From: Alphaproteobacteria bacterium
Lineage (GTDB): Bacteria; Pseudomonadota; Alphaproteobacteria; Rs-D84
Assembly (NCBI GenBank): GCA_009783145.1
Contig: WRHR01000002.1
Span: forward strand, 34,834-98,833
Length of the DNA: 64,000 nt
Reading direction: 5' to 3'
The translations under genes and the position numbers were made by a program. How positions within the stretch are numbered: the stretch's first letter is position 1; each line of letters opens with the position of its first letter. The notes under the pieces were generated by a model. It saw only the letters and a list, made by a program, of their open reading frames with translations, made no database searches and had not been told where the DNA came from. Shown here piece by piece: positions 30,526 to 57,797 of the stretch.

Positions 30526-31062
30526 TGTTATTAACCATCCCAACAGATACGCCGCAACGCCGATGCTGATGCAAATGTCCGCCACATTGAACGCCGGCCA
30601 GTGAAATCCCCTCACGTGAAAATCTAAAAAGTCGATCACCGCGCCAAAGCGGATGCGGTCTATCAGATTCCCCAAGGCCCCGCCGATTATCAGCGACAAT
30701 GCTATGCGCTCGTACTTTTCTTTTGCGCGAGCGAACAGGTGATAAGCCAGAAAGCCTATTATCGCGCCCGTCAGCGCGATTATAACAAACGGCGCCGAGC
30801 TCCCCAGCGCACGGAATAATGAAAAGCTGGTTCCCGGATTCCAGACGAACACGAACTTGAACCAGGATGTCATAGGCAGACTCAGCAAGTCTGCGCCATG
30901 CACGACCATGCCTCCATTGCAAAATGGCGAGTGCAAGTCGCATGCGGCGCCGAACCAATGAAATCCGACCGGAGACATTGTCATAATCCAGCCCTTGGTC
31001 AATTGGTCGAGAACGACCACCAAAAGAATAAAGAATAAAGAATAAAGAATAGATTTCTTCAT
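30511..31062 (-). CDS. lspA: Lipoprotein signal peptidase II
   Basis: 183 aa, 4 TM, conserved Asp blocks; N-terminal MKKSILYSLFFIL coded by an (aagaata) array. Confidence 0.8.
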   Translation of the reverse strand: MKKSILYSLFFILLVVVLDQLTKGWIMTMSPVGFHWFGAACDLHSPFCNGGMVVHGADLLSLPMTSWFKFVFVWNPGTSFSLFRALGSSAPFVIIALTGAIIGFLAYHLFARAKEKYERIALSLIIGGALGNLIDRIRFGAVIDFLDFHVRGFHWPAFNVADICISIGVAAYLLGWLITRSRK

Positions 31063-31142
31063 ATATCAACCTTTTGATTGGGGCATTATAACGGAAAACT
31101 TCTGCAATACAAATGAAATATGGCAGAAGAAGCGGGGTCGCA

Positions 31143-31252
31143 GTTCCCCTCCTGTGGAGGGGTGGCCGCAGGCCGGGGTGGTTCTTGTAATCTGCGAAAA
31201 TTAAACGAACCACCCCGTCGGCTACGCCGACACCCCTCCACAGGAGGGGAAC
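31143..31252. mobile_element. RPE-like palindromic element, intergenic copy
   Basis: cagttcccctcctgtggaggggtgg...ggggtggttcttgtaatctgcgaaaattaaacgaaccacccc...cacccctccacaggaggggaac. Confidence 0.85.
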
Positions 31253-31267
31253 ACCACGGCGCAAATT

Positions 31268-33001
31268 TTAATGATTATGCTTTTCAATTGCGTCGGCCAA
31301 GGCTTTATAATTACTATCCCGCAAGGCGGTCAAAAGGCCGTCTATCTTATTCTTCTGAATCCCCAGCGCGATCAAGACTTCCTGGCCCAGCACAAAGCTG
31401 GATTCTATCGTTTCCGGCAATGCGACCAATGCGCCCTCGGCCCGCAATTCTTCCGATTCCTGCATATTGCGCACGCGCGCAAAGATTTTTACCCGCGGCG
31501 ATGCTAACCTGGCCGCGCGTATAGTCCGCTTCGCTATCGCGGCATTATTCAGCGCCACCACTACCGCGCGCGTGCGCCGTGGCGCAAGGCCCAGTCTTTT
31601 CAGAACAGCCTCGCTGGTCGTATCGCCGTAAAATACGTTAAAGCCCGCCTCGCGCGCAAAAGCCACCGCATCGACATTCGCGTCGATTGCAAGGTACGGA
31701 ATTTTTTGCGCCTCCAGCATCTGCGCGATAGTATGCCCCACGCGTCCGAACCCGCAGATAATTACTTCCGCCTTGATTTCCAGCAGCTTTTCGTTATTTA
31801 TCTTTTCGGCCTGAGCGGGATTGAATAATTTCCCGCGCGAATTCAGCAAGTCATAAACCGCCAGCAATATCGGCGTCACCATCATCGACACGACTATGAT
31901 TGCGGTCAAGACTTCGCCATGTCCGAACGGTATGGCTTGGATATCATTGGTTTTCATAGTCTGCAGAATCAGCAGCCCGAATTCGCCGCCTTGGGCCAGA
32001 ATCAATGCGATAAGGAACGATTCGCGGCTGGAAACATTTCTTACGCGCGCAACTATGTAGATCGCAAAGAACTTGATTACGACCAATGCGATAACGCCCA
32101 GCGCGATAACCCACCAGTTCTGGGCCAGCAGCGGCAAGTCCAGCCCCATGCCCAAAGCGATGAAAAAGAATGACAAGAACAATATCTGATAAGGTTGCAT
32201 GTCCGCCTGAACCTGATGGCGGTATACGGTCTCGGACAGCAGCATTCCGGCAAGGAACGCGCCCATCGCAGGGGGCAGCCCAAAATACCCGAACACCACC
32301 GCCCACAAAACTATGTTCAGCAATATGGCCAAAAGGAAGGCTTCTTTGGATTTGAGTTTTACAACGGCCCTCATCAAAGGATTCAACAGGAACCGGCCGA
32401 CGATGACGACGCCCAGAACAAGACCGGTCGACATAACCAGAATATCGATGACTTCGGCGCCAAGGTTAAACGAACGGCCGGCCAAAATAGGCAGCATCGC
32501 CAGCAAAGGAATAGACAGCAAGTCTTGAAACAGCAATATGGAAAAGGTCTGGCGGCCCATGTTCGACTGCAGCTCGTTTCGATCGGCCAGAACTTGCAAG
32601 TCGCCGGAAGTGCTGGACATAGCCAGCATCAAGGACACCATAACCGTCCCCATTATCGTCCAACTGGTCAGCCCGAAAAGAATAGGGAATATCATCACGG
32701 CAACCATCAGAACCTGCGCGGCGCCGAACCCGAAAATGCTATGGCGCAGTCCCCAAAGGCGCCGCATGTTTATTTCCAACCCTATGACGAACCACAAGAA
32801 TATGATTCCGATCTGCCCCAGGAAAGTCCATATTTCCGAAATCTCCCACAGCTTCAACGCATAAGGCCCGGCAATAACGCCCGCGGCCAGAAACGCCAGC
32901 AAGGTCCCGACGCGGAAAAGGCGCAGCAAGAACACCAGCGCGAACGCAACGCCCAGGAATATGAAAATAGAAGTGCTCATTTTTTCTCTCCGTCCCCGCA
33001 A
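31268..33001 (-). CDS. kefB: CPA2 K+/H+ antiporter with C-terminal TrkA-N (KefB/KefC type)
   Basis: About 12 TM Na_H exchanger domain + Rossmann GFGRVGHTIAQML. Confidence 0.8.
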   Translation of the reverse strand: MRGRREKMSTSIFIFLGVAFALVFLLRLFRVGTLLAFLAAGVIAGPYALKLWEISEIWTFLGQIGIIFLWFVIGLEINMRRLWGLRHSIFGFGAAQVLMVAVMIFPILFGLTSWTIMGTVMVSLMLAMSSTSGDLQVLADRNELQSNMGRQTFSILLFQDLLSIPLLAMLPILAGRSFNLGAEVIDILVMSTGLVLGVVIVGRFLLNPLMRAVVKLKSKEAFLLAILLNIVLWAVVFGYFGLPPAMGAFLAGMLLSETVYRHQVQADMQPYQILFLSFFFIALGMGLDLPLLAQNWWVIALGVIALVVIKFFAIYIVARVRNVSSRESFLIALILAQGGEFGLLILQTMKTNDIQAIPFGHGEVLTAIIVVSMMVTPILLAVYDLLNSRGKLFNPAQAEKINNEKLLEIKAEVIICGFGRVGHTIAQMLEAQKIPYLAIDANVDAVAFAREAGFNVFYGDTTSEAVLKRLGLAPRRTRAVVVALNNAAIAKRTIRAARLASPRVKIFARVRNMQESEELRAEGALVALPETIESSFVLGQEVLIALGIQKNKIDGLLTALRDSNYKALADAIEKHNH

Positions 33002-33004
33002 AAC

Positions 33005-33838
33005 TTATAGCACATTAGCGCGCGCTAGTTCAACAAACTTTTCCATAGGCAATTCTTCCGCGCGCTCTTGCCCGGTTAATCCGAATTGCGACCAATCGAC
33101 GCCGGGCATAATGCTGCGTATCATTTTCCTCCGCTGGCCGAAAAGCTTCGCGGTCAGCTTTTCAACGGATGACAGCTGAATTGTTTTTTTATCTTTCGGG
33201 ATTATCTGCACAACCGCGCTTTGGACTTTCGGCGCGGGGAAAAAAGCGGTATTCGGAATATTGAATAAAATCTTCGCGTCCGCAACCAAAGCGGTAAGAA
33301 CGCTCAGCCGGCCGTATTGCTTATCGCCGACGCGCGCGACGATTCTATCCGCCACTTCGCGCTGGAACATTAAGGTCATAGAGTGGAGAGTGGAGAGTGA
33401 AGAGTGTAGTTGGTGCAGCCACTGAATTAAAAGTTCAGTTCCGATATTATACGGAAGGTTGGAACAAATTGCTAAATCATCTGCACTCTTCACTCTCCAC
33501 TCTTCACTCTTGAAATATTTCAATGCGTCGCCATAAATAACTTCCAGGCGGCCGTCTGCGGCGTTCGAAATTTTTTTCAAAATCAGCCCGGTCGCACGGT
33601 CTTTTTCAATCGCGATAACTCGCGCGGCGCCGCACTCCAGCAAAGCGCGCGTCAGGCCGCCCGGCCCTGGGCCGACTTCGACAACCGTAGCGCCCTGTAT
33701 GCCCGGCACGCTGCGCGCTATTTTCCGCGTGAGGTTCAGATCGAACAGGAAATTCTGGCCCAGCTGCTTTTTGGGTTCCAGGCCCGCATCGCGCATCATT
33801 TCTGCAACTGGGGGAAGATTTAATAATTTTTCATTCAT
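33005..33838 (-). CDS. rsmA: 16S rRNA (A1518/A1519) dimethyltransferase
   Basis: SAM motifs VVEVGPGPGGLT, NLPYNI; contains a 28-bp inverted repeat pair in-frame. Confidence 0.85.
   Translation of the reverse strand: MNEKLLNLPPVAEMMRDAGLEPKKQLGQNFLFDLNLTRKIARSVPGIQGATVVEVGPGPGGLTRALLECGAARVIAIEKDRATGLILKKISNAADGRLEVIYGDALKYFKSEEWRVKSADDLAICSNLPYNIGTELLIQWLHQLHSSLSTLHSMTLMFQREVADRIVARVGDKQYGRLSVLTALVADAKILFNIPNTAFFPAPKVQSAVVQIIPKDKKTIQLSSVEKLTAKLFGQRRKMIRSIMPGVDWSQFGLTGQERAEELPMEKFVELARANVL
33379..33512. repeat. Inverted heptamer arrays (gagtgaa/gagtgga ... cactctt/cactctc) inside the rsmA coding sequence
   Basis: atagagtggagagtggagagtgaagagtgtag and ctgcactcttcactctccactcttcactcttg, 71 bp apart, bracketing the NLPYNI codons. 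Confidence 0.85.
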
Positions 33839-34464
33839 ATCTGCTTTCTGCCGCCGAACGCAATGCTCAGCGTTCCGTCGTCGATGTAATCCAGGTCGCC
33901 GCCCAAAGGCACGCCGGATGCCAGTTCTGTAAATTGTAGGGGCGAAATATTTTTCGCCCCAGGGGCGAATGATAATTCGCCCCTACAAACCTGTGCGACA
34001 TAATGCTGGGTTGTTTTTCCTTCCACCGTATTGGGCAGGGCAAAAATGATTTCGACTATTTTTTCATCATCGATACGCGCGGGCAGACTTGCGATATTCA
34101 AATCTTCGGGAGTGGTTCCCGCGGCGCCGGACAGCAAGCCGCCGATGATATGATAGCGCCCCTTGAACACGCCGGATTTTTCCAAAGTCCAAACATCGCC
34201 CAAATCGCGGACCAGACATAACTGGCCGTTAGCGCGCGCGGGATCGCGGCAGAATTCGCAATTATCACAATCGGTCAAACACCCGCATACGGGACAAGGA
34301 CGTACAGATTCGGCAGTATCATTCAGCGCTGCGGCCAGGGCAGCGGCCCTGCCTGTTTTGTCCTGCAACAGGGCCAAGACTATGCGCTGCGCCGCCCGCC
34401 CTCCGACCCTGGGCAGCTTTGCGAATTGTTTAATAAGCTTTTCGATTTTCTGATTCATCGACAA
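33835..34464 (-). CDS. recR: Recombination protein RecR
   Basis: HhH, C4 zinc finger CPVCGCLTDCDNCEFC, Toprim; carries a 53-bp in-frame double hairpin. Confidence 0.85.
   Translation of the reverse strand: MSMNQKIEKLIKQFAKLPRVGGRAAQRIVLALLQDKTGRAAALAAALNDTAESVRPCPVCGCLTDCDNCEFCRDPARANGQLCLVRDLGDVWTLEKSGVFKGRYHIIGGLLSGAAGTTPEDLNIASLPARIDDEKIVEIIFALPNTVEGKTTQHYVAQVCRGELSFAPGAKNISPLQFTELASGVPLGGDLDYIDDGTLSIAFGGRKQI
33935..33987. repeat. Tandem double hairpin (ggggcgaa-N-ttcgcccc)x2 framed by tgtagg...cctaca, in-frame inside recR
   Basis: tgtaggggcgaaatatttttcgccccaggggcgaatgataattcgcccctaca encodes CRGELSFAPGAKNISPL on minus. Confidence 0.8.
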
Positions 34465-34507
34465 AATATTAGCCTAAACTAACAACATAAATAAAGCACA
34501 AAAAACT

Positions 34508-34538
34508 TTGACAAATCAGTTTTAATCTATGTTATAAT
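34508..34538 (+). promoter_or_regulatory. Candidate sigma-70 promoter TTGACA-N19-(TGt)TATAAT with strong SD aaggaaagga
   Basis: tttgacaaatcagttttaatctatgttataatat 25 nt upstream of the ATG at 34565. Confidence 0.45.
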
Positions 34539-34564
34539 ATCCATAACCAAGGAAAGGATATAAA

Positions 34565-35692
34565 ATGGCGGACACTCAAAAATACCCGAAGTCATTCGAA
34601 GAAGTCTTGAAGATGGCGATGGACAAGAAACCGGAAAAAGGAAGATTTGGCGATTGGGGGGGCTGGCGCATCATGGCAAACGCCGGCAAGGCGGAATTTA
34701 TCGGAACCCCTTGGAGCGAGGGCTTTCCGAAAACACTGGATGATGCCAAACATCTGAGAGTTTGGCACGACAATGAAGAATTTTTCGAAATGTTTATCAA
34801 TGCTGACGCGGATAACTCCGCCGAAGCGAGGGATTTTCTGCAGCGCGCGAATCTTATCGGCGCCGTGCTGGATAATAACTTCAAAAGTCCGGAAAATATG
34901 ATTGTCTTTCTGAAAAACGTGAAATCCCTGACCGACGAGCAGCTGAAATACAATGTGCTGAAACAAGTATCCGACCACAACGATAAAAAAATAAATTATG
35001 ATAAAAATTTGATGCTTGCACAAAGCCCGTTTGTAACGACGAACGACCTGCAGCATGTTTTATGGGTGATTTACGAATATAACGACAGAAAAGACGACCT
35101 GGCGCAGTGGTCGGCGGAACAAAGGGAAATCGCGGCCAAAGTCGCGAATGATTTGCTTGCGCTTGCCGACAAGGAACTGCGCGCGGAACTTGCCAAAGAC
35201 ATTCCGGATACGCAGGTTTTCAAAGACCTTGAAAGAAATTCGGATGCGGCTATCAAGTATTTGCCGGCAGCGCAGGATTACAAAGAAAAACAAAATCTGG
35301 AGAAAGAAATCGCGAAAAAGTTCGATGTGAACCAATTGCTGGGCGACACCGAATATATCGCCAAGTACGACCAAAGCGTCTTGTTGAAAAACGAAGAGCT
35401 GAAAGCGGAAATAGAAAAACTGAATCGCGAAAAAGAGGAAAACGCCGCACAGCAACAGCGCGATTCCAAATATAGAACGGAACTGGAGCAAATGAACGCG
35501 CGATTGCAGGGAGAGATTACCGGGCTAGAAAACCAGCTGTCGGAAGCAAAGAACACTTCCCAAAACACGCAATCGAAATTAGCTAAGCTTCAAGAAGCCG
35601 TGGAAAATACTTCTGCAAAAACATCTTTGAAAACCGGCAGAATCGCAAATTTGCAAAAGATTGTAAAAGAGCAAACCGAACAAAAAAAATAA
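34565..35692 (+). CDS. Hypothetical soluble protein with a long C-terminal coiled coil (K/E/Q-rich)
   Basis: 375 aa, no signal peptide, no recognisable domain; one of the few plus-strand genes. Confidence 0.5.
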   Translation: MADTQKYPKSFEEVLKMAMDKKPEKGRFGDWGGWRIMANAGKAEFIGTPWSEGFPKTLDDAKHLRVWHDNEEFFEMFINADADNSAEARDFLQRANLIGAVLDNNFKSPENMIVFLKNVKSLTDEQLKYNVLKQVSDHNDKKINYDKNLMLAQSPFVTTNDLQHVLWVIYEYNDRKDDLAQWSAEQREIAAKVANDLLALADKELRAELAKDIPDTQVFKDLERNSDAAIKYLPAAQDYKEKQNLEKEIAKKFDVNQLLGDTEYIAKYDQSVLLKNEELKAEIEKLNREKEENAAQQQRDSKYRTELEQMNARLQGEITGLENQLSEAKNTSQNTQSKLAKLQEAVENTSAKTSLKTGRIANLQKIVKEQTEQKK

Positions 35693-35707
35693 TAAAAGCG
35701 GGGTGGT

Positions 35708-35863: not shown

Positions 35864-36976
35864 TCAATGAAACACAAAGCAATCTATCTGCTGCGTTTTG
35901 GCCGCCTGGCATGCGCTCTGCGCCGCGCTTTCCGACAGGCCGTTCGCACGCACGCGGAACATTCCGCTGGGGGAAGGCTCAACCACCGCTGACAGTCCTG
36001 TAATATTACGAACGCGCGTCACTTGCGATTCTGCGGCCGCCCGTGATCCGAAAGCACCAAATTGAACGCCAGTCCCGCCCGCGTTTTGCACGGGAACAAT
36101 TGCCGCGGGCTTGCTTAACGGCTTCGTTACGGCCACGGGCGGCGGCGCATAATTATTCTGCACCGCAACCGGCGCCGCGCCAGTTCCTAGTATTGTAAAT
36201 CCTTTATCCAGCATCCTTGTCGAAACCGCGGCGCGAATATCCTTGGTTTGCGCGCCCAGAACAACGCTCATCACGCGCCGACCGTCGCGTTTGGCTGTTG
36301 CCACCAGCGAATATTTGGACTTGTTCGTATATCCTGTCTTCATACCGTCGCATCCCGGATACGACGCCAGCAGCCGGTTCCCGTTGGTATAAGTCTGCCC
36401 GTTATAAGTCCAGCTTTGAATCCCGAAATATTTCCAATATTGCGGGAAATGCTTGTAAACCGCCATAGACAGCAATGCGATATCGCGCGCGCTTGACAGG
36501 TGGTCGTCGTCCGGCAATCCGGACGAGTTCTCGAAATTAGTCTTGGAAAGCCCGATTTCCGTCGCGACCTGTGTCATCAATGACGCGAAGTTTCCCTCCT
36601 TTCCACCCTTCAGGTTTTCCGCCAAAACCCGCGCGACATCATTCGCGCTGTGCACCGCGACGGCTTTTATCGCGTCTTCAACCCTTATCTTCGACCCCGC
36701 GGCCAGGCCCAGTTTTACAGGCAAAGCATTCGCCGCGCTTTGCGAAACGATTAAGTGGTCGTCCAGATTAAGACGCTTGTGCTCCAACGCGTCGAATGTC
36801 AGATACAGCGTCATGATTTTCGTAAGAGATGCCGGATAATTCAGGTCGTTCGCGTTCTCGGAATAAAGCACTTTGCCCGTATCCAAGTCCGCGACAAGCA
36901 CGGCGTTATAGTCGGCTGCAAACGCCGATACCGAAAGAATAAAGAATAAAGAATAAAGAATAAAGAATCTCTTCAT
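35864..36976 (-). CDS. dacA: D-alanyl-D-alanine carboxypeptidase (PBP5/6 class) with C-terminal SPOR domain
   Basis: SxxK (ASLTK), SxN (SAND), KTG motifs; C-terminal VQFGAF...SPOR-like; signal peptide MKRFFILYSLFFIL from a repeat arm. Confidence 0.8.
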   Translation of the reverse strand: MKRFFILYSLFFILSVSAFAADYNAVLVADLDTGKVLYSENANDLNYPASLTKIMTLYLTFDALEHKRLNLDDHLIVSQSAANALPVKLGLAAGSKIRVEDAIKAVAVHSANDVARVLAENLKGGKEGNFASLMTQVATEIGLSKTNFENSSGLPDDDHLSSARDIALLSMAVYKHFPQYWKYFGIQSWTYNGQTYTNGNRLLASYPGCDGMKTGYTNKSKYSLVATAKRDGRRVMSVVLGAQTKDIRAAVSTRMLDKGFTILGTGAAPVAVQNNYAPPPVAVTKPLSKPAAIVPVQNAGGTGVQFGAFGSRAAAESQVTRVRNITGLSAVVEPSPSGMFRVRANGLSESAAQSACQAAKTQQIDCFVFH

Positions 36977-37082
36977 AGCATGAAAGAGTACAAAATTTTC
37001 ATATAAAAGGTCAATTAATAAAAGTACCGCGCAACCTAGATTACGCGGCCCTAATTTATTCTTTATTCTCTATTCTTTATTC
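36937..37082. repeat. Heptamer-array hairpin element, family E: (aagaata)x3 - spacer - (tattctt)x3; left arm codes the dacA signal peptide, right arm abuts the pyk stop
   Basis: gaaagaataaagaataaagaataaagaat ... ttattctttattctctattctttattcttta. Confidence 0.8.
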
Positions 37083-37083
37083 T

Positions 37084-38472
37084 TTAATCCAAATCTCTCA
37101 ACGAAATTTTATCCCCTTCGACTATTACCAGCTTTCCGCGCGTGACGCCAAAGCGACGCGCCGCCTCGGACGCGTCCTTTTGTCCGAACATCTGCTCGTT
37201 AAAAATCGGATAGACCCCGCGCGAAAGGCACAACTGATTCGCATCTATCGCATCGTTGCAGACCGCGATTATCGGCATATCGGGTTTCCGACAGGAAACA
37301 GCCGTCGCAATTTCAGTCCCCGCGTCAAACACCACGATCGCCGCGGCTTTGTTCAAATGAGCCATCGACGCGACGCTGCGCGACCAGTCGTTTTCGGGCA
37401 AGTTCTCGATTCGCGTCCAATCCTGTCCGTTCTCATAAACGTCCCCGTCGGCGTTGGTCACGATTTTCGACATAGTATCGATCACGTTTATGGGATTGTC
37501 GCCAATGGTCGTTTCTTCGCTGGTCATAACGCAGTCCGCGCGCAAATAAGACGCCAGCGCGACGTCGGAAATTTCCGCGCGCAAGGGGAACTCGCTGTGA
37601 ACCATGCTGCCCAGCATCTGCGTTGCGACGATGATCGGCTTGTTCATCTTGCGGCACATGCGGATGCTTTCGCGCTGCAGCGCGGGAAGCTTTTCAAAAG
37701 GTATTTCCACGGCCAAATCCCCGCGCGCGAACATAATAGCGTCGGAAATCTGAATGATTTCTTCCAGCCGTTCCAACGCCTGGGGCCGTTCTATTTTCGA
37801 AATGATTTTAATAGGCTGACTGGAACGAGCCGTGATAAAATCGCGGGCCTCGGCCACGTCTTCGGGCCGCTGCACGAAAGAAATCGCAACCCAATCGGGG
37901 TTCTTGGTCAGCGCGTATTCCAAATCCGTACGGTCTTTTGGCGTCAGCACCGAAGTTTCTATATCGGTATCGGGAATATTGAACCCGCGGCGCGACCAGA
38001 TTTCGTCGCCGCGCTTTACTTTTGTCGTCACGGAGCAGAGCCTGGATTCAACCGTGCAATTGTTATTCAGAACTTCCAGCTCTATCTTTCCATCATTCAA
38101 TAAAACGCGGTCGCCGACTTTCAAGGACTTCAAGACATCGTTATCCGGCAGGCAGACGCGGGTTTCATCGCCGCGAGCAGGATTATTGTCCAGAACGAAT
38201 TCCTGACCGACTTTCAAAGGATAGTGGTTTTCGGTTTTAAAGTCGCCTATGCGGTGCTTTGGCCCCTGCAAGTCCGCGATGATCGCAATCGGACGGCCCA
38301 GTTCTTCGGATATCTGTCGTATCAAGTCAATCTTTTGCCCCTGGACATCGCCGGTGTCATGCGAAAAATTCAGGCGGCAGGCATTCACGCCCGCATCAAC
38401 CATCGACTTCAAAGTCTTGTAATCCTGGCTGTTCGGTCCGATGGACGCGATTATTTTAGTGAGTTTGGTCAT
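37084..38472 (-). CDS. pyk: Pyruvate kinase
   Basis: MTKLTKIIASIGP..., conserved K+/Mg sites, 462 aa. Confidence 0.85.
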   Translation of the reverse strand: MTKLTKIIASIGPNSQDYKTLKSMVDAGVNACRLNFSHDTGDVQGQKIDLIRQISEELGRPIAIIADLQGPKHRIGDFKTENHYPLKVGQEFVLDNNPARGDETRVCLPDNDVLKSLKVGDRVLLNDGKIELEVLNNNCTVESRLCSVTTKVKRGDEIWSRRGFNIPDTDIETSVLTPKDRTDLEYALTKNPDWVAISFVQRPEDVAEARDFITARSSQPIKIISKIERPQALERLEEIIQISDAIMFARGDLAVEIPFEKLPALQRESIRMCRKMNKPIIVATQMLGSMVHSEFPLRAEISDVALASYLRADCVMTSEETTIGDNPINVIDTMSKIVTNADGDVYENGQDWTRIENLPENDWSRSVASMAHLNKAAAIVVFDAGTEIATAVSCRKPDMPIIAVCNDAIDANQLCLSRGVYPIFNEQMFGQKDASEAARRFGVTRGKLVIVEGDKISLRDLD

Positions 38473-46438: not shown

Positions 46439-49400
46439 TTATTTATTACGATTACGCACGCGTTCCATCAGAGTGAATATAGCCGGTGTGACCATGAAAG
46501 TCCAGAACAATGATGCCAGGATTCCGCCGCAAATAACCGCGGCCATGCTGCTTTTCATCCCGTCCACGGACCAAAGCTGCGGCACCATTCCGGCCGCAAC
46601 CGCAATCGTGGCCATCAGAATCATACGTTTTTTGTCGTTAAACTCCGCCCACAGCGCGCTTGTCCGCGATTCCCCCTGGTTTATCCTGGCAATCGTCGGC
46701 TCCAACAGCAGAATATTGTTGTTCACGACCAAGCCCACCAGCATGACTATGGCCAGCATCGCGGCCACATTGATGGTGGCCCCCGACAGGAACATCAATA
46801 TGAACACTCCGGAAAAGCTGGTGAGTATTCCCGTCGCAATCGTAAACGGATGCACCCAGGTATTCATCATCGCCGCCAGCAGCATAAAAGTCAAAATCGT
46901 CGCCAGCAGAAACGCCTGCCCGATTTCCCCGGTCGTCTCGGACTGGATTTCGCTCATCCCGCCGAACTGCGCGTAATAACCGGGCGCCCAGTCGATGGTT
47001 TTCAGCGCCGATTCTATCCTGCTCTGCACGGGACCTATGGTGCTTTTACCCAGATTGATATTTATTTCAGTAATGCGGTTTTTATCCAGGCGGCGGATAT
47101 CCGGCGTTGCTTGCGCGAATTTTATCTCGCCCAATTCCGACATCGGCACCAGGCCCTTTTGCGACGCGACGAACACGCTGTCGAACATCTCGCGATTTTT
47201 GAACGGCTTCGCGAATTCCAAGACTATCGGGTATTCCTTGCCCGCTTCCTTGTATTTGTAAGAGTCATTTCCAAACAATGCGGTTCGCAAGGCGGTGCCG
47301 GCGTACGCATTTTTTATTCCCCAGAAACTCATCGCGTCGGCGTCCGGAACAAACGTGATTTCCATGCCGGGGGCTTGCTGCGCGCGAACCGCGCTTTGGA
47401 TTTCCGGAATTCGGTTCAGCAGCTCTATGACCTGATCCGCGTATGCTTCGCGCTTTGTATCGTCTTCACCATTTATGTCCAAAATCATGTCGGACGAGTA
47501 ATCGCCGCCCATAGCTTCGCCCGCGCGAATCTGAATTTCCGCGTCCGGAATCTGAGACAATGCGGGCAGCATAACTTGGGCCAAGCGCTTGTCCGAAAGT
47601 TTTCTTTTCCCATACGGCACCAGCTCTACCTTTACGGTTACATTCTGAACGCCGCGCTCCCCGATTTTTACCGAAGTGGATTTTACTTCCGTAAATTCGC
47701 GCAGCTTTTCCTCGATCTGCAGCGCGATCTTTTCGGCCTTCGCATAAGAGCTTCCCGCCGGCGCCCGCGCCGTGACCGTGATTTGACTTGCGTCTATATC
47801 AGGCCTGAACTCGTTCCCGACCCAACGCATCGGAATCAAGCTGAGCACCAAAACAGCCGCGGCAATACCGACCGCTTGCCATGGTTTTTTCAACTGCCAA
47901 TCATAAATCGGTTTGAACCAAGAAAGAGAATTGTCATTTTTCTTTTCTTTATTCTTTATTCTTTTTTCTTTATTCTTTCTTAAAATCTTCGCGATCATCA
48001 TCGGCGTCAGGGTAAAGCTGAACATCAAAGACAATATCGTCAAAAACACGACGGTCAATCCAAACTGAGCCATAAACTGACCCGCAATCCCGCCCATGAA
48101 CGCGATTGGCAGAAACACGACTATATTCGTGCCCGTCGCCGCCAGGATCGGAACCACGACTTTTTTGGTGCCGTCGACCGCCGCTTGTTCCGGCGTTTTC
48201 CCGACATCTAATTCTTTCAGCGCCGCCTCTATCAGAACTATCGCGTTGGAGATCAAAGTCCCCAAAGCCGACGAGCACGCCAGCAAAGTCATCGCGTTAA
48301 TCGTAAATCCCGCCGCGTCCATAAACAGGAATCCCGCAACCAAAGATGCCGGTATCACAATGCCGGCTATTACCGTGGACCGCCAGTTGCGCGTAAAAAA
48401 TAAAAGCGTCAAAACAGTAAGGGCCAACCCCAAAACTATCCCAAGAATCGTGTTGTTTGTTTCCTTTGAAACAGCAACAGAAGAATCGGATATTATTTCC
48501 ATCCGCGCATCCGGATAGCGCGTCTGCATGTCTTTTTCCAGTGCGGGCAATTGCTTATGCAATTGGTTGGCAATCTTTATGGCATTTCCGTCAGTGGCTT
48601 TTACCACGGATAAAATCACGACCGGCTTGCCGTCATAACGCGCGCCGGTCTCGATATCGCGCGCGGCATCTTTGACATCCGCGATGTCGCGCAAGGCAAA
48701 GTTCTGGCCTTCGGCCGTAGTGATATGCAGGCCCTTGATATCGTCGACAGATTGGAATTCTCCAATAAAGCGTATGTTGTTGGAGTCCTGCCCCGCCTCT
48801 ATCTTTCCGCCCGGCACGTTCAGGTTATGGGCGGCCAGCGCCCCCACTATATCCATAACGGCAACGCCGCGCGCGGCCATCAGCTCTGGATTCATAAATA
48901 TGCGAACAGCGCGGCTTTCCCCGCCGAACAGAGAAACGGAGGCAACGCCCTTCACAGCCGTAATTTTATTCGCAAGCGCGTCGTTGACATAGAATTCCAA
49001 GTCGCGCGGGTTGGTCCCGGTCAGAACTATATCCACAACCGATTGCTGCAGAGGGTTCAGCTTTTCCACAACCGGCTGTTTTAATCCTTCGGGGAATTCG
49101 TTCGAAATCGCGTCCAGCTTTGCCTTCACTTCGGCCGCCTTGTCATTGACATTCACGCCGATGTTGAATTCCGCCATGACGAAGCCGCCGTTTTCAAAGG
49201 CTTGGGATTGTATGCGCTTTATTCCCGCAACTTCGGACATGGCATCTTCCGCTTTTTGAACGACCTGGGTTTCTATTTCCGCAGGAGACGCGCCGGGATA
49301 GACAAGCGTCGCCGTAACCATGGGCAGGTCTATGGGGGGTATGCGCTCCACATTCATTTTCGGGAACGCGACAATCCCCAGCACCACCCACAAAAGTACG

Positions 49401-52225: not shown

Positions 52226-52231
52226 CATGGC

Positions 52232-53311
52232 TTACGATTGCTTCAGGATTTCTTCAGCGATGTTAGCAACGGCATTGTTTTCAATCTTCGCCTTTGCCGC
52301 CATCTTTTTCAGGCGCGCCCCATTGCTAAACAATTCCTCCAGCGTTGCGGATAGCCACCTTGAAGTAAATTTGCTCTGCGGGATTGCAATGCCGCCGCCT
52401 TGCGAAGCAAAAACTTCCGCATTCGCCGCCTGGTCGGGGTTTATCCCCAACGGGACCAGAATCGCCGGACGGCCAACGGTCTGCAATTCCGCGACCGTGC
52501 TTGCGCCGCTGCGCCCTATCACCAAGTCCGCCGCCGCCACTTCCGATGCCATATCATGAATGAACGACAGCACGTTCGCCTTCACGCTGTTGCCGGCATA
52601 GAACCTTTGCAAGCGCGCGACGTTTTCCGGCCGGGTCTGATGCACTATGAACAGCTTCTTTACGATGGATGACGGAAGAAGGATGATGGACGACGGAACC
52701 ACGTCGTCCAAAATCTGCGCCCCTAACGAACCACCGGTGACAAGAAGACGGATGATGGATGATGGATGATGGATGATGGATGACATAAATTCTTTACGAA
52801 CAGGTAATCCTGTATAAACAACTTTCAACTTTCCATCATCCGTCATCCGTCTTCCATCATCCATTCCCTCCACCTTTGGAAAACTTGTCATCAAAGTATT
52901 TACCCAGCGCAGGGCGAATTTATTCGCGCGACCAATTGCCGCGTTCTGCTCGTGCAATAATGTCGGGATTTTCCAAACGCGCGCCGCCAAAATTGCAGGA
53001 ACGGACGCATAGCCGCCGAATGCCACAACTCTGTCCGGTCGGAAAACCATAAAGCGCAGCGTCAGAGCAACCGCCGAAAAGCCGATCTTCATCAATGCGA
53101 AGACTTGCTGCAACTTTCCCTTGGCGCCGACGCCGGACGCCCAAACCCAAGCGATTCCCGCGCGCGGAGGCTTATTCTTTTTCACCATATCCATAACGCG
53201 CGAATCGGTCGAGATTATCACGCGATTATGGCGCCGCACCAATTCTTCGGCAACGACCAGCGCTGGAAAAACATGCCCGCCGGTTCCCCCGGTCGCAATC
53301 CATATCTTCAT
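52232..53311 (-). CDS. murG: UDP-GlcNAc:undecaprenyl-PP-MurNAc-pentapeptide GlcNAc transferase
   Basis: GGTGGHVFPAL N-terminus, C-domain LLVTGGSLGA; linker holds an inverted (ggatgat) array element. Confidence 0.85.
   Translation of the reverse strand: MKIWIATGGTGGHVFPALVVAEELVRRHNRVIISTDSRVMDMVKKNKPPRAGIAWVWASGVGAKGKLQQVFALMKIGFSAVALTLRFMVFRPDRVVAFGGYASVPAILAARVWKIPTLLHEQNAAIGRANKFALRWVNTLMTSFPKVEGMDDGRRMTDDGKLKVVYTGLPVRKEFMSSIIHHPSSIIRLLVTGGSLGAQILDDVVPSSIILLPSSIVKKLFIVHQTRPENVARLQRFYAGNSVKANVLSFIHDMASEVAAADLVIGRSGASTVAELQTVGRPAILVPLGINPDQAANAEVFASQGGGIAIPQSKFTSRWLSATLEELFSNGARLKKMAAKAKIENNAVANIAEEILKQS
52748..52867. repeat. Inverted heptamer arrays (ggatgat)x5 ... (atcatcc)x4 inside the murG inter-domain linker, in-frame
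   Basis: gacggatgatggatgatggatgatggatgatggatgacat ... ccatcatccgtcatccgtcttccatcatccattcc; codes MSSIIHHPSSII and GMDDGRRMTDDG around the conserved GLPVR block. Confidence 0.85.
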
Positions 53312-53329
53312 AAAAAAACCTCCGGTTTC

Positions 53330-53462: not shown

Positions 53463-54597
53463 TGTCCTCTCGCACCAATGCCAATATCATACCAAACATC
53501 AGGCAGAATGCAACAAAAGACGAGCCGCCGTAAGATATGAACGGCAAAGTCATTCCCTTTGGCGGAAACAGCCCCAGCGCCGACATCACGTTTATGCAAA
53601 CTTGAGTGCCGAACAAGGCGAACAATCCGCCGCATGCATAAAAAACAAACTTGTCCTTGGCTCGCGTCGCGTCTGTAGCCAGGCGTTTCATCACGTATAA
53701 AAATCCCAGCAAAAGGACGCAGGCTATTATGGCGCCGGAATCTTCCGCTATCGCGGAAAAAACAAAGTCCGTATGCGCGTCGGGCAGCGATTGCTTTATA
53801 AAGCTGTCTTCGCCGCGGCCGAATAATCCGCCGTGCTTTACCGCCTCTACCGATTTTTTAATCTGATAGTTATCGCCGCCGCCGGCAAGACCCAAGAACC
53901 CCAGCACCCTCATTCGTACGTGCGACATGGTGAAGAATGCGAACACTCCACCCGACGCACCGACGCCCGCAAAAATCGGAAGAAAATACATCGGCAAGCC
54001 CGCCAGAAAAATCATAGAAGCGAACACGATTAAATAAAGAACGAACGAGCCGAAATCCGGATGAGTCAATATAATCAAAATCGCGGGCAGAAATAATGCC
54101 AGATATGCCGGCCAGCCGTCCCATTTCCATGCTCGCTTTGCAAAGAATATATCGCCCGGCGCCAGCTTTTCAATGCGCGTCAAGAACCATGCGGTTAAAA
54201 TTATGAAGCCCGGTTTCAACAAGTCGCTGGGCATAACGGACGCAAAGCCCAGATTGACCCAGCGCGCGGATCCTTTGACCGCTGCGGGCATGACCAAGGT
54301 CGCAATCAGCAGCAGCCCGCATATGACCACGTTCACGAACGCGACGGCGAAAACTTGCCTTTTGCTTAAGAATGACGACACAAGCAGCGTTATCAGCCCC
54401 AGTATGTAAAAGGGTATCGCTTTCAGCAGAAAGAAATGCCACGGCTGGGGCGGATTCATACGCTCGGCCGCCACAGAGCCGGCGGACACCATCGCCCACA
54501 TGCCGACGAATATAAGCGCGATAACGCACCAGAACAGACGGCGGTCTATTTCAAAATACCAGCTTGTTAATTTGCTCTCTTCGCTTCGGCGCAGCAT
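53452..54597 (-). CDS. ftsW: Cell division/peptidoglycan polymerase FtsW (SEDS family)
   Basis: 10 TM SEDS topology, 381 aa, dcw-cluster context. Confidence 0.85.
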   Translation of the reverse strand: MLRRSEESKLTSWYFEIDRRLFWCVIALIFVGMWAMVSAGSVAAERMNPPQPWHFFLLKAIPFYILGLITLLVSSFLSKRQVFAVAFVNVVICGLLLIATLVMPAAVKGSARWVNLGFASVMPSDLLKPGFIILTAWFLTRIEKLAPGDIFFAKRAWKWDGWPAYLALFLPAILIILTHPDFGSFVLYLIVFASMIFLAGLPMYFLPIFAGVGASGGVFAFFTMSHVRMRVLGFLGLAGGGDNYQIKKSVEAVKHGGLFGRGEDSFIKQSLPDAHTDFVFSAIAEDSGAIIACVLLLGFLYVMKRLATDATRAKDKFVFYACGGLFALFGTQVCINVMSALGLFPPKGMTLPFISYGGSSFVAFCLMFGMILALVREDKWK

Positions 54598-54598
54598 T

Positions 54599-55666
54599 TT
54601 ACAACCTCAACAATAACAACGCGATTCCTGAAAACAGAATCGACATTATGAAAAACCTTTCCACGATTTTTGATTCGGGCAGGCCCAGTTCTTCGAAATG
54701 ATGATGCAGCGGCGCGCGCTTGAAGACTCTCTTGCCGACTCCGTTTTTCTTGGTCAGCTTATACACGAAAGTCTGAATAAAGCTGGACAGCAATATGGCG
54801 ACCAGCATCAGGGACGCAACGCCGATTACTATCTCGGCCTTAAGCAGCATCGATACGGTTCCGACAAATCCGCCAAGAGCAAGGCTGCCCGTATCGCCCA
54901 TAAAGATACTTGCGGGCGCGGAATTGAACCACAGGAATCCGACCAGCGCGCCCAGCGCCGCTCCGATTATCGGAAACAGGCTTGCCGCTTCGGGCAACAT
55001 AACCGCGTTCGGGATAAAGCCAAGGCGCGTCACTCCGAACAAGGCGATCAACGCCACGACCAAAATCGGAATATAAATTTTCGACAGCATGCCGTCCAGC
55101 CCGTCCGTAATATTCGCGGCATTGGCCGTGCCAGCGATTACGAAATACGCCAGGACGAAATATAAAATCCCCAGCGGCAAAAGATACCCGCCCGGAAACC
55201 AAAGCGAATATTCCGGCAGATAGAAAGGCATCGTCTGATTGATGAAATAAGCCAGCCCCAAAACGCCCAGCCCTTCCAGCCCCAGGCGCATTTTGGGCGA
55301 CAGGCCGTTGTCGGCTTTCTTGCTCTGAGAGCGGACTTTTTTAAAGTCGTCGGCAAATCCTATGGCGCCGAACCATAACAAGGCCGCGATTGAGATCCAA
55401 GGCGCATCCTGGCCCCAGTCCATAAACAAAACGCCGCCAACAACAATTGCCAAGACCATCAGCAGCCCGCCCATAGTCGGCGTTCCCGACTTGATCAAAT
55501 GCGACTGCGGCAAGTTTTCGTTAATGGGCTGTCCTTTTTTCTGCCAGCGGCGCATGGCGTTTATGTAGCCCCGCCCGAAAATAACCATAATCAGAAAAGC
55601 TGCAGCAAACCCGCAAGCGAAAAGCGCCCCGCCGCCAAGTTCAATGTTCAAGAGTTGTGGTAACAT
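54599..55666 (-). CDS. mraY: Phospho-N-acetylmuramoyl-pentapeptide transferase
   Basis: 355 aa, 10 TM, conserved DD/DGLDG and HHH motifs. Confidence 0.9.
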   Translation of the reverse strand: MLPQLLNIELGGGALFACGFAAAFLIMVIFGRGYINAMRRWQKKGQPINENLPQSHLIKSGTPTMGGLLMVLAIVVGGVLFMDWGQDAPWISIAALLWFGAIGFADDFKKVRSQSKKADNGLSPKMRLGLEGLGVLGLAYFINQTMPFYLPEYSLWFPGGYLLPLGILYFVLAYFVIAGTANAANITDGLDGMLSKIYIPILVVALIALFGVTRLGFIPNAVMLPEAASLFPIIGAALGALVGFLWFNSAPASIFMGDTGSLALGGFVGTVSMLLKAEIVIGVASLMLVAILLSSFIQTFVYKLTKKNGVGKRVFKRAPLHHHFEELGLPESKIVERFFIMSILFSGIALLLLRL

Positions 55667-55674
55667 AGTTTGTT

Positions 55675-55750
55675 CCTTTTTTTATTTACGATTTAAGATT
55701 TGCGATTTTACTCCCGACAAATCGTAAATCGCAAATCGTAAATTATTTTT
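55675..55750. repeat. Heptamer-array hairpin element, family F: (tttacga) / (atcgtaa) arms around GGGAG-like core
   Basis: ttatttacgatttaagatttgcgattttactcccgacaaatcgtaaatcgcaaatcgtaaatt. Confidence 0.8.
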
Positions 55751-55754
55751 TCCA

Positions 55755-56486
55755 TTATATCCCCAAAATCGTCCAAAGCAATCTCCGCGCGTCGATATAC
55801 GATTTATACAGCAATTCGCCGACCCTCTTCCACCGCGCCACCAGATATTTTTTCTTTTCGGCATAATTGATGCTGCTGGCCACGCCCTTGCGTTCCCAAG
55901 CGATGTTAGGGAATACCGACCGGCCGCGGACGCGGTACTTCCAATATTTTATGTACTCGTGGTCATGCGGGACGAACATAGGCAGCATTTTGGCGACATA
56001 TCTTTTCGCCGCATCGCGCTTTATCAGATAAGCCCCGGATTTGTTCTGATGAAACGCGTTCCTTACCAGATGATATTTTCCGCCAAGCAACTTGCGCATA
56101 CGGATTTTTCCGCCTCCATGTGTGCCGTATAGCTTCACGATATCCCAATCGTCCTTTGATATTATGTCGTCCAAGACCTGCTTGAAATCCACAGCGAACT
56201 CCATATCGTCTTCCAGTATCAGGCCGATGTCGGCGCCCGTTTCGACGAATTTCTCCAATGCCTCGTAATGCGAGATATAGCACCCGATTTCATTGTTCAT
56301 CACGATTCTGCCGTGGACGAAAGTATGAAGGCCGCGATTGACCTCCCTGCTTGTAAATGTCCGTATCTTGCCGTCGGTGCCCGAAACGCGGACAAAATCC
56401 AAGCCGACAGCTTTCAGGTTTTTTTCGGTTTGTTCCATGCGCTCGGGTGCGCGGTCCAAATTTATTACGAGCGTTTTCATTTTCAT
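55755..56486 (-). CDS. Glycosyltransferase family 25 (LPS core beta-glycosyltransferase-like)
   Basis: MKMKTLVINLDRAPERMEQTEKNL... typical GT25 N-terminus. Confidence 0.65.
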   Translation of the reverse strand: MKMKTLVINLDRAPERMEQTEKNLKAVGLDFVRVSGTDGKIRTFTSREVNRGLHTFVHGRIVMNNEIGCYISHYEALEKFVETGADIGLILEDDMEFAVDFKQVLDDIISKDDWDIVKLYGTHGGGKIRMRKLLGGKYHLVRNAFHQNKSGAYLIKRDAAKRYVAKMLPMFVPHDHEYIKYWKYRVRGRSVFPNIAWERKGVASSINYAEKKKYLVARWKRVGELLYKSYIDARRLLWTILGI

Positions 56487-57793
56487 TTCTTCTTTCCCTC
56501 CGCAAAGATTTTTCGCCAGTCGGAAACTTGCTTTTTCGTATTATCCCAAATCTTTTTCAGGTCGCCGCTGACTTGCTTGCCGAACGACTCGTCTATCTTT
56601 CCGCCCATGTCTTCCGCAATCTTGGTCGCTTTATCCGCCAGATATGCGACCAGGCAGCCGACTATCAGGACCGGCATAAAGCCTTCGGATTGCACTGTCG
56701 GAACCTTGTCTCCCAAATCAGTTGTAACCACTCCGCCCAGCAATGCCGCGCCTATGGCCGCAACGACCGCGAGTATAATGAAGTAAATCACCGCCTGGAT
56801 GAACCTTTTTATCTGGTCGGGCAGCGAGGTATATTTGAAAATTCCCGCAAAGGCCGTAAATATGGTGGCCGGGATGCCTTCCAAGTTTGTGGCCTTCTTG
56901 CCGCCGAAGCATTCCGTAATAGCGGTAAACGGAAGCAGCATTATCGCCATGAACAAGTCCACTATCACGCCCAGCGCCAGCAAGGCGAACTTCCAGATAT
57001 TTATCGTGAAAATCACGACAAAGACAGCGCCCGCGACGAAAGTCAGCGCGCTGTGGCCGATCCCAAACCACATCCACTTGAAGCCCGCCGCGACGCAGGT
57101 ATAAAAGAATCCCGATAGACGCGTCGGCAGGCATAATAAATCCGCCGTGTAACGCGATGATACTATCCCGCCGCTATTACCCACAAACTGGCGGATCGCA
57201 TCGCAAGTATCGGGCAGCTTTGTCCCCGCCGCGCCCGCGACGGAATCCAGTATCAGGTTCGACATATACGCGCCGGCGCTTATTATTGGCCCGAAGATCG
57301 TCATAAAAATCTGGCCCGGATTGTTGGACAGCACCCACAGCCAGACGGAAATCAACAGCGCTTTCTTTGCGACCTCTACGCCCAACTTTTTAACATCACC
57401 CTGGCCTTTTATGAGATTATAAGCCTCGAACATTATCCAGAACGCGAACAGGGCCACCAGCAGGGTTTGCACGAACTCGAACAGAGAACGCTGCAGAGCG
57501 TCGCTGATGCGGGACAGGGCGCCGATAAAGGCCTTTCCCACGCGCGCTTCTATAGGAACGTAATCTTTTACCAGCGCTTTCTGAAAATTGCCCTGGAACG
57601 AATCTATGTCCAGCGACAGATTGCTCATAAGAAGTTTCTGTTTTTGTTCGTCGAGCCAAGAGCCGGTATTCCCACCAGCGACGATTTCGCCGGCTATGGC
57701 TTCATTATTAATCACAGGAGACAGAACATCATCGGCAAAGGCATTGCCGATGCAAAGAATAAAGAATAAAGAATAAAGAATAAATTTTTTCAT
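56483..57793 (-). CDS. VirB6/TrbL-like type IV secretion inner-membrane protein, paralog D
   Basis: Signal peptide MKKFILYSLFFILCIGNAFA (repeat-encoded), multi-TM core, hydrophilic C-tail; start taken at MKKFIL. Confidence 0.55.
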   Translation of the reverse strand: MKKFILYSLFFILCIGNAFADDVLSPVINNEAIAGEIVAGGNTGSWLDEQKQKLLMSNLSLDIDSFQGNFQKALVKDYVPIEARVGKAFIGALSRISDALQRSLFEFVQTLLVALFAFWIMFEAYNLIKGQGDVKKLGVEVAKKALLISVWLWVLSNNPGQIFMTIFGPIISAGAYMSNLILDSVAGAAGTKLPDTCDAIRQFVGNSGGIVSSRYTADLLCLPTRLSGFFYTCVAAGFKWMWFGIGHSALTFVAGAVFVVIFTINIWKFALLALGVIVDLFMAIMLLPFTAITECFGGKKATNLEGIPATIFTAFAGIFKYTSLPDQIKRFIQAVIYFIILAVVAAIGAALLGGVVTTDLGDKVPTVQSEGFMPVLIVGCLVAYLADKATKIAEDMGGKIDESFGKQVSGDLKKIWDNTKKQVSDWRKIFAEGKKK

Positions 57794-57797
57794 TCTA

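Follow-up and report, generated by a model that had tools for sequence, protein, structure and literature searches.

Can one short tandem repeat supply the hydrophobic core of N-terminal export signals in unrelated proteins, and can the same DNA act at once as a structural element? The question was raised by a stretch of 64,000 nt (the window) whose source is an uncultured alphaproteobacterium of the gut. A related genus, Candidatus Enterousia, belongs to the order Rs-D84, which has genomes of <1 Mb. Tandem arrays of the heptamer AAAGAAT (ATTCTTT on the opposite strand) and of similar short units lie here at the ends of genes. An original prediction held that they donate signal peptides or transmembrane (TM) segments to four unrelated products, DacA, LspA, a "VirB6-like" membrane protein and an OmpA-like protein, and that at dacA one segment of DNA is both a hairpin arm and an export signal. 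Our analysis indicates that the arrays probably belong to a lineage-specific class of heptamer repeats which evolves in concert and sits at gene boundaries, where T-rich arms are translated as hydrophobic cores and purine-rich arms end genes.

Array-encoded N-termini in the window

All four arrays were found within a few bases of where they had been reported, and the translations quoted for them were exact (MKKSILYSLFFIL, MKRFFILYSLFFIL, MKKFILYSLFFIL and MKKHRLLSFFSTLLLFYSLTL). The three AAAGAAT arrays, at 31023-31051, 36934-36968 and 57754-57784, showed a perfect period of 7 with 4.1, 5.0 and 4.4 copies in Tandem Repeats Finder (TRF). On the sense strand, lspA starts ATG AAG AAA TCT ATT CTT TAT TCT TTA TTC TTT ATT CTT, dacA starts ATG AAG AGA TTC TTT ATT CTT TAT TCT TTA TTC TTT ATT CTT, and the open reading frame (ORF) with its ATG at 57793 starts ATG AAA AAA TTT ATT CTT TAT TCT TTA TTC TTT ATT CTT. 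The array stands in one register in all three genes, which gives the identical nonapeptide ILYSLFFIL, and a stretch of about 27 nt is identical among them. With a 14-nt probe of two units (AAGAATAAAGAATA, ≤1 mismatch) we obtained 18 matches, against 0.05 expected from shuffles. In the fourth gene, an OmpA-family ORF, an array of the 8-mer AAGAGTAG at 2534-2567 makes up codons 10-21. Four further arrays, of the TTTGCTC family (LLFALCS), had been missed by the original prediction and bring the unrelated proteins with an array-built N-terminus to eight in the window; the coding arrays of 7- and 8-nt units fall within codons 3-29. The arrays and their genes are listed below, with arrows at the predicted cleavage sites.

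36934-36968, minus strand: (ATTCTTT)5 array encoding FFILYSLFFIL, the predicted hydrophobic core (h-region) of the DacA signal peptide, codons 3-15; also the 3' arm of the inverted pair between pyk and dacA
35864-36976, minus strand: dacA (Peptidase_S11 and SPOR, Pfam), with the predicted signal peptide MKRFFILYSLFFILSVSAFA↓AD
31023-31051, minus strand: (ATTCTTT)4.1 array encoding ILYSLFFIL, most of the first TM helix (TM1) of LspA, codons 4-14; without a partner arm
30511-31062, minus strand: lspA (Peptidase_A8, Pfam PF01252 over residues 12-175)
57754-57784, minus strand: (ATTCTTT)4.4 array, translated as the h-region in the predicted signal peptide MKKFILYSLFFILCIGNAFA↓DD; without a partner arm
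56483-57793, minus strand: hypothetical polytopic membrane protein, one of four weakly similar tandem paralogs
2534-2567, minus strand: 8-mer (CTACTCTT) array encoding STLLLFYSLTL of a predicted lipoprotein signal peptide; 3' arm of a hairpin
1895-2596, minus strand: OmpA-family lipoprotein, with the lipobox ICGC immediately after the array and a Pfam OmpA domain at residues 133-221
957-1003, minus strand: degenerate TTTGCTC-family array encoding FAICALLFALCS in the predicted signal peptide of ORF 236-1015
9174-9205, minus strand: TTTGCTC-family array encoding LALCSLFFALC in the predicted signal peptide of ORF 6330-9221
11313-11333, minus strand: short TTTGCGC/TTTGCTC-like array encoding FAFALCA in the predicted signal peptide of ORF 9215-11356
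61860-61898, minus strand: TTTGCTC-family array encoding LFYLCSLLFALCS in the predicted signal peptide of ORF 60663-61916

Inspection of the translations revealed the features of Sec signal peptides cleaved by SPase I, namely a charged n-region, an h-region of about 8-15 residues and small residues at -3/-1, in DacA and in ORFs 56483-57793, 236-1015, 6330-9221, 9215-11356 and 60663-61916. The segments were MKR/FFILYSLFFILSVS/AFA↓AD in DacA and MKK/FILYSLFFILCIGN/AFA↓DD in ORF 56483-57793, and further cleavage-site contexts among the array-encoded signal peptides were FGAFA↓SD, GMALA↓AD and LGAHA↓AW. The repeats were confined to the h-region, and the n-region (MKK or MKR) and the c-region (AFA↓, AxA or a lipobox) were unique sequence. 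By this architecture the arrays appear to form the hydrophobic core of an N-terminal export or anchor segment, which in LspA is TM1 and not a cleaved signal.

The name "VirB6-like" for the product of ORF 56483-57793 found no support. Domains of the ORFs were assigned with Pfam, for this ORF also with relaxed thresholds and with NCBIfam, and it had no Pfam match at E ≤ 5 and no NCBIfam match at E ≤ 1. The product has 5-7 TM-like segments, and its three weak paralogs lie alongside in tandem. The similarity GTTGATA..ATGAARAAA upstream of the lspA and ORF 57793 arrays was too short to be told from chance.

Start codons and translation of the arrays

The original prediction would fall if the true starts lay downstream of the arrays, which would then be 5' untranslated region (UTR). 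We therefore compared the N-termini of orthologs of DacA, LspA, the OmpA lipoprotein and the ORF 56483-57793 protein. Each of the 120 closest homologs of DacA had a signal peptide, about 20 residues long, ahead of the invariant xYxAxLVAD, and in the window the next Met of DacA comes only beyond the catalytic SxxK motif. LspA orthologs were found in 71 related loci, and those with a readable N-terminus began with MKK and about 15 hydrophobic residues, followed by DQxTK. M1 and D are 19 residues apart in the window and 18-19 in these orthologs; the array thus lies in a first TM helix that ends at DQxTK and whose length is conserved. Every homolog of the ORF 57793 protein had a signal peptide ending in AxA ahead of a conserved mature start. 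In the OmpA family, YSLTLICGC↓VAY aligned with L(A/S/M)(G/A/C)C↓(V/I/A)AY (90 N-termini inspected of 120 homologs), and all inspected homologs were lipoproteins with the lipobox right after the hydrophobic stretch. No usable start codon was found downstream of the arrays in the four genes.

In the orthologs the signal peptide or TM1 is equally long. The arrays of the four genes are therefore translated, with starts upstream, and the expected refutation failed for every one of them. The hydrophobic segment with an array was no longer than that of array-free relatives, whose signal peptides are ordinary. The arrays of the window do code for hydrophobic cores, as had been proposed, but the word "donate" goes too far: equivalent signal peptides already exist in the array-free relatives, so the arrays overwrote an existing h-region and conferred no export.

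Some other arrays lie outside the coding set or disturb annotation. The longest yidC ORF (28774-30384) has a TTG start upstream of a CCTACTT array at 30404-30433 and its TM1 at residues 50-68; its start is likely M22 (MVKYLENN), so the array is likely 5' UTR and was left out of the coding set. In two related loci (L084 and L085) arrays lie ahead of the conserved N-termini of RecR and Fmt. With the ATG-containing unit ATGCTCT (MLYALCS), homologs P0005, P0009 and P0253 are annotated as starting inside the array. The DacA homologs P0020, P0021, P0034, P0038, P0043, P0056, P0085 and P0109 have over-extended annotated N-termini reading IISALD(H/P/Q/V)KGGFFV. In these, a non-coding element has evidently been translated, one that is conserved ahead of dacA in other lineages of Enterousia and consists of a G-run and then a T-run.

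Hairpins and the pyk-dacA spacer

The second part of the prediction concerned the hairpin. The following features are involved, together with the arrays given above.

37055-37086, minus strand: purine-rich partner arm (AAAGAAT)4.6, enclosing the pyk stop codon (37084-37086)
37026-37049, minus strand: terminator-like GC hairpin and T-run in the pyk-dacA loop, downstream of pyk
36977-37015, minus strand: promoter-like motif (TTGACC, spacer of 17-18 nt, extended -10 TGTACTCT) in the loop of the dacA hairpin
2605-2633, minus strand: purine-rich 8-mer partner arm with a Shine-Dalgarno-like GGAGAG inside, overlapping the stop codon of the upstream ORF
30404-30524, minus strand: AAGTAGG/CCTACTT inverted pair between lspA and yidC; its 5' arm gives the last LspA residues (RK) and the stop codon, and its 3' arm is most likely 5' UTR of yidC

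The partner arm predicted for dacA does exist, with the pyk stop inside it; the two arms are 97% complementary over 31 nt and 90 nt apart. Predicted RNA folds had -57.4 kcal/mol (z -8.0) for the dacA region and -41.9 kcal/mol (z -6.1) for the OmpA region, and similar start-spanning hairpins were predicted in the related loci L081, L084, L085 and L086. No inverted partner arm was found for the LspA and ORF 57793 arrays within the 300-400 nt searched, and with all four TTTGCTC arrays this makes six solo arrays among the eight array-encoded N-termini. The double use of one segment as structure and export signal therefore holds for a subset, DacA and OmpA, where the overlap of the arm with the signal-peptide codons is real and the hairpin is a predicted structure, but not for LspA and ORF 57793.

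The promoter-like motif of dacA, TTGACC-N17-TGnTAnnnT, ends about 10 nt before the ATG and is kept in five genomes (the window, L007, L083, L084 and L085), and its position would imply a very short or absent leader. Because this motif lies inside the loop, dacA mRNA probably does not contain the 5' partner arm. If it is the dacA promoter, only read-through RNA or the DNA itself could adopt the long hairpin.

Three of the loops (pairs 112-236, 25613-25732 and 30404-30524) share a core, the 18-bp palindrome TTGTCCATTATAATGGACA followed by TTATTGTTGC, and the arms of these pairs are not of one heptamer family. Such a core might act as a terminator or an operator, or it might mark the centre of an element.

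Stop-codon and hydropathy filter

Since 7 is not a multiple of 3, an array runs through all three frames, which means that it encodes one heptad peptide per strand whatever the frame of entry. Of 2340 heptamer classes, 69% were stop-free on the given strand, and 3.5% were stop-free with a mean Kyte-Doolittle hydropathy ≥2.0. Both units of the signal peptides exceed this value (ATTCTTT, ILYSLFF, 2.23; TTTGCTC, FALCSLL, 2.53). The purine-rich partner arms (AAAGAAT, AAGTAGG, AATTAGC, TAATGAC and others) nearly always contained stop codons, and for this reason they abut or supply the stop codons and last residues of genes (pyk, lspA RK*, ftsW KWK* and others). An open and hydrophobic reading is limited to certain T-rich arms, which explains why no others were seen in signal-peptide cores. 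The purine-rich arm came first on the sense strand in 13 of the 15 inverted pairs of the window. In two related loci (L081, 9979-10010; L086, 9976-10009), one arm of (AATGAAC)n or (AAAAATG)n serves two genes at once, ending the upstream one with its TGA and starting the next with its ATG.

Where arms lie inside MurG, RsmA and an AcrB-like pump, unit variants remove the in-frame stops. The array of the pump (47945-47978) is a solo array of the AAAGAAT family in antisense orientation that forms codons 489-500 (KNKEKRIKNKE), and a T-to-A unit variant abolishes the TAA stop of a perfect array.

Genome-specific units

The orthologs of DacA and of the ORF 57793 protein had the same array unit in both signal peptides within each of five genomes, and a different unit between genomes:

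The window: shared unit TTCTTTA
Gsp477_bin73 (loci L007 and L081): shared unit TTCATTG
JGI sample 3300042603 (loci L083 and L082): shared unit TTCATTA
JGI contig Ga0466703_316765 (locus L084): shared unit TTTGCTC
GCA_031555055.1 (loci L085 and L086): shared unit TTCATTT, also written CATTTTT

The two loci of Gsp477_bin73 were paired by neighbouring NCBI protein accessions. The shared units are one or two substitutions apart. The flanks of the dacA array are conserved (3' TCGG and the promoter-like motif), so the dacA arrays are orthologous, and the inter-arm sequences of the two genes are unrelated, which argues that the array was homogenised and not transposed as a cassette. The TM1 of LspA in Gsp477_bin73 is also a degenerate heptamer array at the position seen in the window. 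The pattern implies that dispersed arrays within a genome evolve in concert, with gene conversion or template switching as the inferred route of homogenisation.

Distribution of the arrays in the window and the clade

The window contained 41 period-7 arrays and several 8-mer arrays, in about ten unit families (AATTAGC, TAATGAC, AAGTAGG, AAAGAAT, ATTTACG, GAGCAAA, the 8-mer AGAGTAG family, GGATGAT, AGAGTGG, ACGCGAG and ATAAGTT), and the loops of its 15 inverted pairs were 6-86 nt long. The array density was 4.36 per kb in intergenic DNA (14% of bases covered), 1.51 in the first 30 codons, 1.17 in the last 11 codons, 1.05 in the rRNA operon and 0.15 in internal coding sequence. For the clade, TRF was run on 80 related loci (1.4 Mb). 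Most loci had 7-mer arrays at about 0-3 per 20 kb, and only L007, from the termite-gut metagenome-assembled genome Gsp477_bin73, was as dense in them as the window. Weak period-9 and period-12 matches in other related loci were ordinary coding repeats. Lag-7 periodic N-termini occurred in 8, 6 and 4 of 120 homologs, compared with 0-1 at lags 5, 6 and 9.

In the same window, a low-GC island at 12000-15200 (0.37-0.43, about 0.50 elsewhere) adjoins the 5S end of the rRNA operon. It encodes a RloB-like protein and an AAA_21/AAA_15 ATPase (an OLD/Abi-like pair) and is probably a mobile defence module.

Arrays in rRNA genes and inside proteins

Arrays were also present in rRNA genes. The 16S gene (19890-21586) has 1697 nt, compared with a model of 1533 nt, and contains an array hairpin (AGAGTAAG/CTTACTCT) at 21367-21401, near its 5' end and just before GGCGCACGGGTGAGTAA (V1/helix 6 region). 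In the 23S gene (16139-19031), an ATAAGTT/TTATAAC array hairpin lies at 18394-18472, about 560-640 nt from the 5' end, in what we take to be the helix-25 region, where intervening sequences excised by RNase III occur in other bacteria. An additional array pair (19057-19166) lies immediately upstream of the 23S gene. A gene for a PF05635 "23S rRNA intervening sequence protein" (four-helix bundle) was found at 2632-3456, bracketed by imperfectly complementary arrays (3086-3118 and 3460-3490); the frame stays open across a CCAACCT array, read as TSNLQPP, and leads to an N-terminus like that of type IV pilins (G↓RSLIEMLGVLAIAG; N_methyl motif at E = 0.003). A second PF05635 gene lies beside an array in L086 (6992-7298).

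Inverted pairs were found in frame inside MurG (52750-52864) and RsmA (33380-33511). Their loops code for the conserved motifs TGxPVR (TGLPVR in MurG) and NLPY (RsmA), and the arms replace variable flanking segments. The loops are thus ancestral sequence, which means that two arms arose on either side and no single block was inserted. The MurG of L081 has a pair at the orthologous position (14136-14256) with another heptamer (AAAGGCA/GCCTTTT). Many more in-frame pairs occur in conserved cytoplasmic proteins of relatives, in L084 in mutS (5-2374), truB (2377-3387) and rsmA (5750-6787), and L007 has array sites in the dacA linker (2384-2454) and in recR (5219-5298).

Comparison with known repeats

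The Rickettsia palindromic elements (RPE), reportedly described by Ogata and colleagues in 2000, are said to lie in frame in protein-coding and RNA genes. RPEs are units of 100-150 bp with a family consensus, inserted as one block. The arrays resemble them as palindromic repeats of a reduced alphaproteobacterial genome that occupy intergenic DNA, permissive protein loops (MurG, RsmA) and structural RNAs, and they share with RPEs and miniature inverted-repeat transposable elements (MITEs) the in-frame copies in MurG, RsmA and the AcrB-like pump (47945-47978) and the copies in 16S (21367-21401) and 23S (18394-18472). Unlike in these elements, only the arms are repeated here, as tandem heptamers, the loops are unrelated or ancestral coding sequence, and the units are genome-specific. 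No family consensus over the whole element was found, and only three loops share TTGTCCATTATAATGGACA. For repetitive extragenic palindromic sequences (REP) and bacterial interspersed mosaic elements, the comparison gave no transposase domain (Pfam, 58 ORFs in the 64 kb) and no REP-like consensus beyond the heptamers.

In the opa genes of Neisseria, (CTCTT)n repeats lie in the region coding for the leader peptide; they are long and polymorphic and belong to a paralogous family of adhesins. There, too, a non-triplet tandem repeat encodes the hydrophobic core of a signal peptide, but the arrays of the window are short, invariant across independent assemblies, located in unrelated housekeeping genes and part of a genome-wide class of inverted repeats. 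The short tandemly repeated repetitive (STRR) sequences of cyanobacteria are intergenic heptamer tandem repeats, and the TAACTGA heptamers of Beggiatoaceae, cyanobacteria and Bacteroidetes comprise 169 direct repeats and 1 indirect repeat (MacGregor 2015, PMC4679880). Like TAACTGA, the arrays have 2-6 or more copies of a 7-nt unit and are abundant intergenically, often just upstream of starts (PMC4679880). TAACTGA and STRR, however, have a single conserved unit in nearly always direct repeats, with no signal-peptide coding reported, whereas the window has at least 10 unit families, 15 inverted pairs and arrays that often overlap the ends of coding sequences, and its units are specific to the genome.

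In the literature on repeat-encoded signal peptides we found only general work on simple sequence repeats (SSRs) and phase variation (PMC3315296, PMC3899988) and the study of Delihas (2007, PMC2759123). In that study, repeats of enterobacterial repetitive intergenic consensus (ERIC)/RU-1 and of RU-2 (YPAL) are fused to ORFs with predicted signal peptides or TM segments, e.g., Y. pestis YPO1552. As in the window, an intergenic palindromic repeat read in frame gives a predicted signal peptide or TM segment. The ERIC and RU-2 cases are mostly small, poorly conserved ORFs with non-tandem units of 100-170 bp (PMC2759123), whereas here conserved housekeeping proteins are concerned, the h-region alone is replaced with its length kept, and the replacement recurs across genomes. 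No description of such repeats was found in the Rs-D84/Enterousia literature. None of the compared systems unites tandem-heptamer inverted arms, many unit families, genome-specific units common to unrelated genes and h-region replacement in conserved housekeeping proteins.

Discussion

We propose the following explanation. The arrays would be lineage-specific short tandem repeats with 4-8 copies of a 7-nt (sometimes 8-nt) unit, present in one sub-clade of the Rs-D84/Enterousia-like alphaproteobacteria of the gut, and most of them would be paired as inverted repeats at the borders of genes. An h-region or a first TM helix may demand only length and hydrophobicity, and a T-rich array at the 5' end of a gene could then replace the hydrophobic segment without loss of function. 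Concerted change would act inside single arrays, from one arm to the other and among the dispersed arrays of a genome, and the outcome would be signal peptides of unrelated proteins that are identical in DNA within a genome and divergent between genomes.

Functional dual coding, in which array hairpins are selected as RNA or DNA structures and the 3' arm is placed in signal-peptide codons, under constraint from structure and export alike, seems unlikely to us. Several observations favour it. The hairpins could be intercistronic sites of RNase III cleavage or other processing, reserve terminators, or switches that act on translation or occlude a promoter; they are predicted to be very stable (z -4 to -13), unit variants are mirrored across arms (e.g., the G/A alternation at 25613-25732), the purine-rich arm has its strong 5' bias, the loops contain a terminator-like hairpin, a promoter-like motif, a ribosome-binding site and a start codon, and array hairpins lie at rRNA sites where other bacteria have intervening sequences excised by RNase III. 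Against it, most of the array-encoded N-termini are solo, the conserved promoter-like motif in the dacA loop probably leaves the mRNA without its 5' arm, and most Enterousia relatives are array-free, so the structure is dispensable; moreover, a mutational process such as intrastrand template switching could keep the complementarity without selection. Contingency loci, in which slippage of non-triplet repeats switches exported proteins by frameshift as with the CTCTT of opa, are a much poorer candidate and in our view very improbable. Units of 7 or 8 nt do lie at the 5' coding ends of envelope proteins, and 100% matches within several arrays imply ongoing slippage or conversion. But copy-number polymorphism was not seen: contigs of three independent assemblies (ERZ27257305, JGI 3300002504 and ERZ27257320), retrieved by exact-protein look-up where the 90% clusters had one member each, matched the window at 100% identity over stretches of 2552, 1058 and 3311 bp, and these stretches span at least five arrays, including those of lspA and ORF 57793 and two intergenic pairs, although consensus assemblies may conceal minority copy-number variants. 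The arrays also have only 4-5 copies, orthologous arrays stay in frame at about 60-73% protein identity, the majority of arrays are intergenic inverted pairs, and housekeeping genes are affected (lspA and dacA, and internally murG and rsmA), all four of them counted as essential.

Two further accounts were considered. Mis-called starts, with the arrays as 5' UTR, explain some cases, such as yidC (30404-30433) and RecR and Fmt in L084 and L085; for the four genes at issue they are contradicted by the ortholog N-termini of DacA, LspA, OmpA and the membrane protein, and we give this account even less credit than slippage. That the arrays are chance low complexity is next to impossible. Hydrophobic codons are T-rich at position 2, and the codons of hydrophobic segments might look periodic for this reason, but chance would not be expected to produce the excess of probe matches, the long identity of three genes, the complementary partner arms, a periodicity at lags 7 and 8 and not at 5, 6 or 9, and ordinary signal peptides in array-free relatives.

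Several points weigh against the explanation we prefer, that of concertedly evolving heptamers at gene boundaries. Array pairs at orthologous sites in three genomes, namely the FtsW-MurG spacer (window, L081 and L082), inside MurG (window and L081) and around the start codons of DacA and the membrane protein, have wholly different heptamers with intact complementarity. This resembles selection for structure and suits a functional or mechanistically maintained hairpin better than a repeat that is simply tolerated. An array stood at the N-terminus of 8 of 26 genes with a hydrophobic N-terminus and of 0 of 26 others (Fisher p = 0.002), but the test is in part circular, since an array by itself renders an N-terminus hydrophobic. 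We infer that the array-encoded peptides act as export signals from their conserved architecture. The DNA examined was 64 kb of the source genome and pieces of 5-21 kb from four other genomes. No transposase, reverse transcriptase or REP-associated tyrosine transposase (RAYT) was found among 58 ORFs of the window scanned with Pfam, and the scan of the window brought out no enzyme or mechanism for homogenisation between loci.

A bolder extension, which we put forward tentatively and consider possible but on balance doubtful, is that an active process of an Rs-D84 sub-lineage writes and homogenises complementary heptamer arrays genome-wide, which would make it a mode of concerted evolution new for coding sequence. 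The process might be hairpin-templated template switching together with gene conversion between loci, or co-evolution with a factor that reads the heptamer. If this were true, signal peptides, protein loops, stop and start codons and rRNA expansion helices would be rewritten together by a genome-specific "word".

For practical work, the arrays disturb gene calling, as units with ATG produce false starts and purine arms produce stop codons and C-terminal tails. They also inflate rRNA length, and they could serve as lineage markers of a poorly known gut clade. For the biology of these bacteria, the finding means that the core of a signal peptide is so unconstrained that a genome-wide repeat overwrites it in many unrelated conserved proteins, and a 7-residue repeat like ILYSLFF appears to be enough for Sec, lipoprotein and signal-anchor functions. 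The same unit across genes within a genome, with a different one at orthologous sites between genomes, is unusual for bacterial coding sequence, and the pattern suggests an as yet unexplored mechanism of mutation or conversion in reduced genomes.

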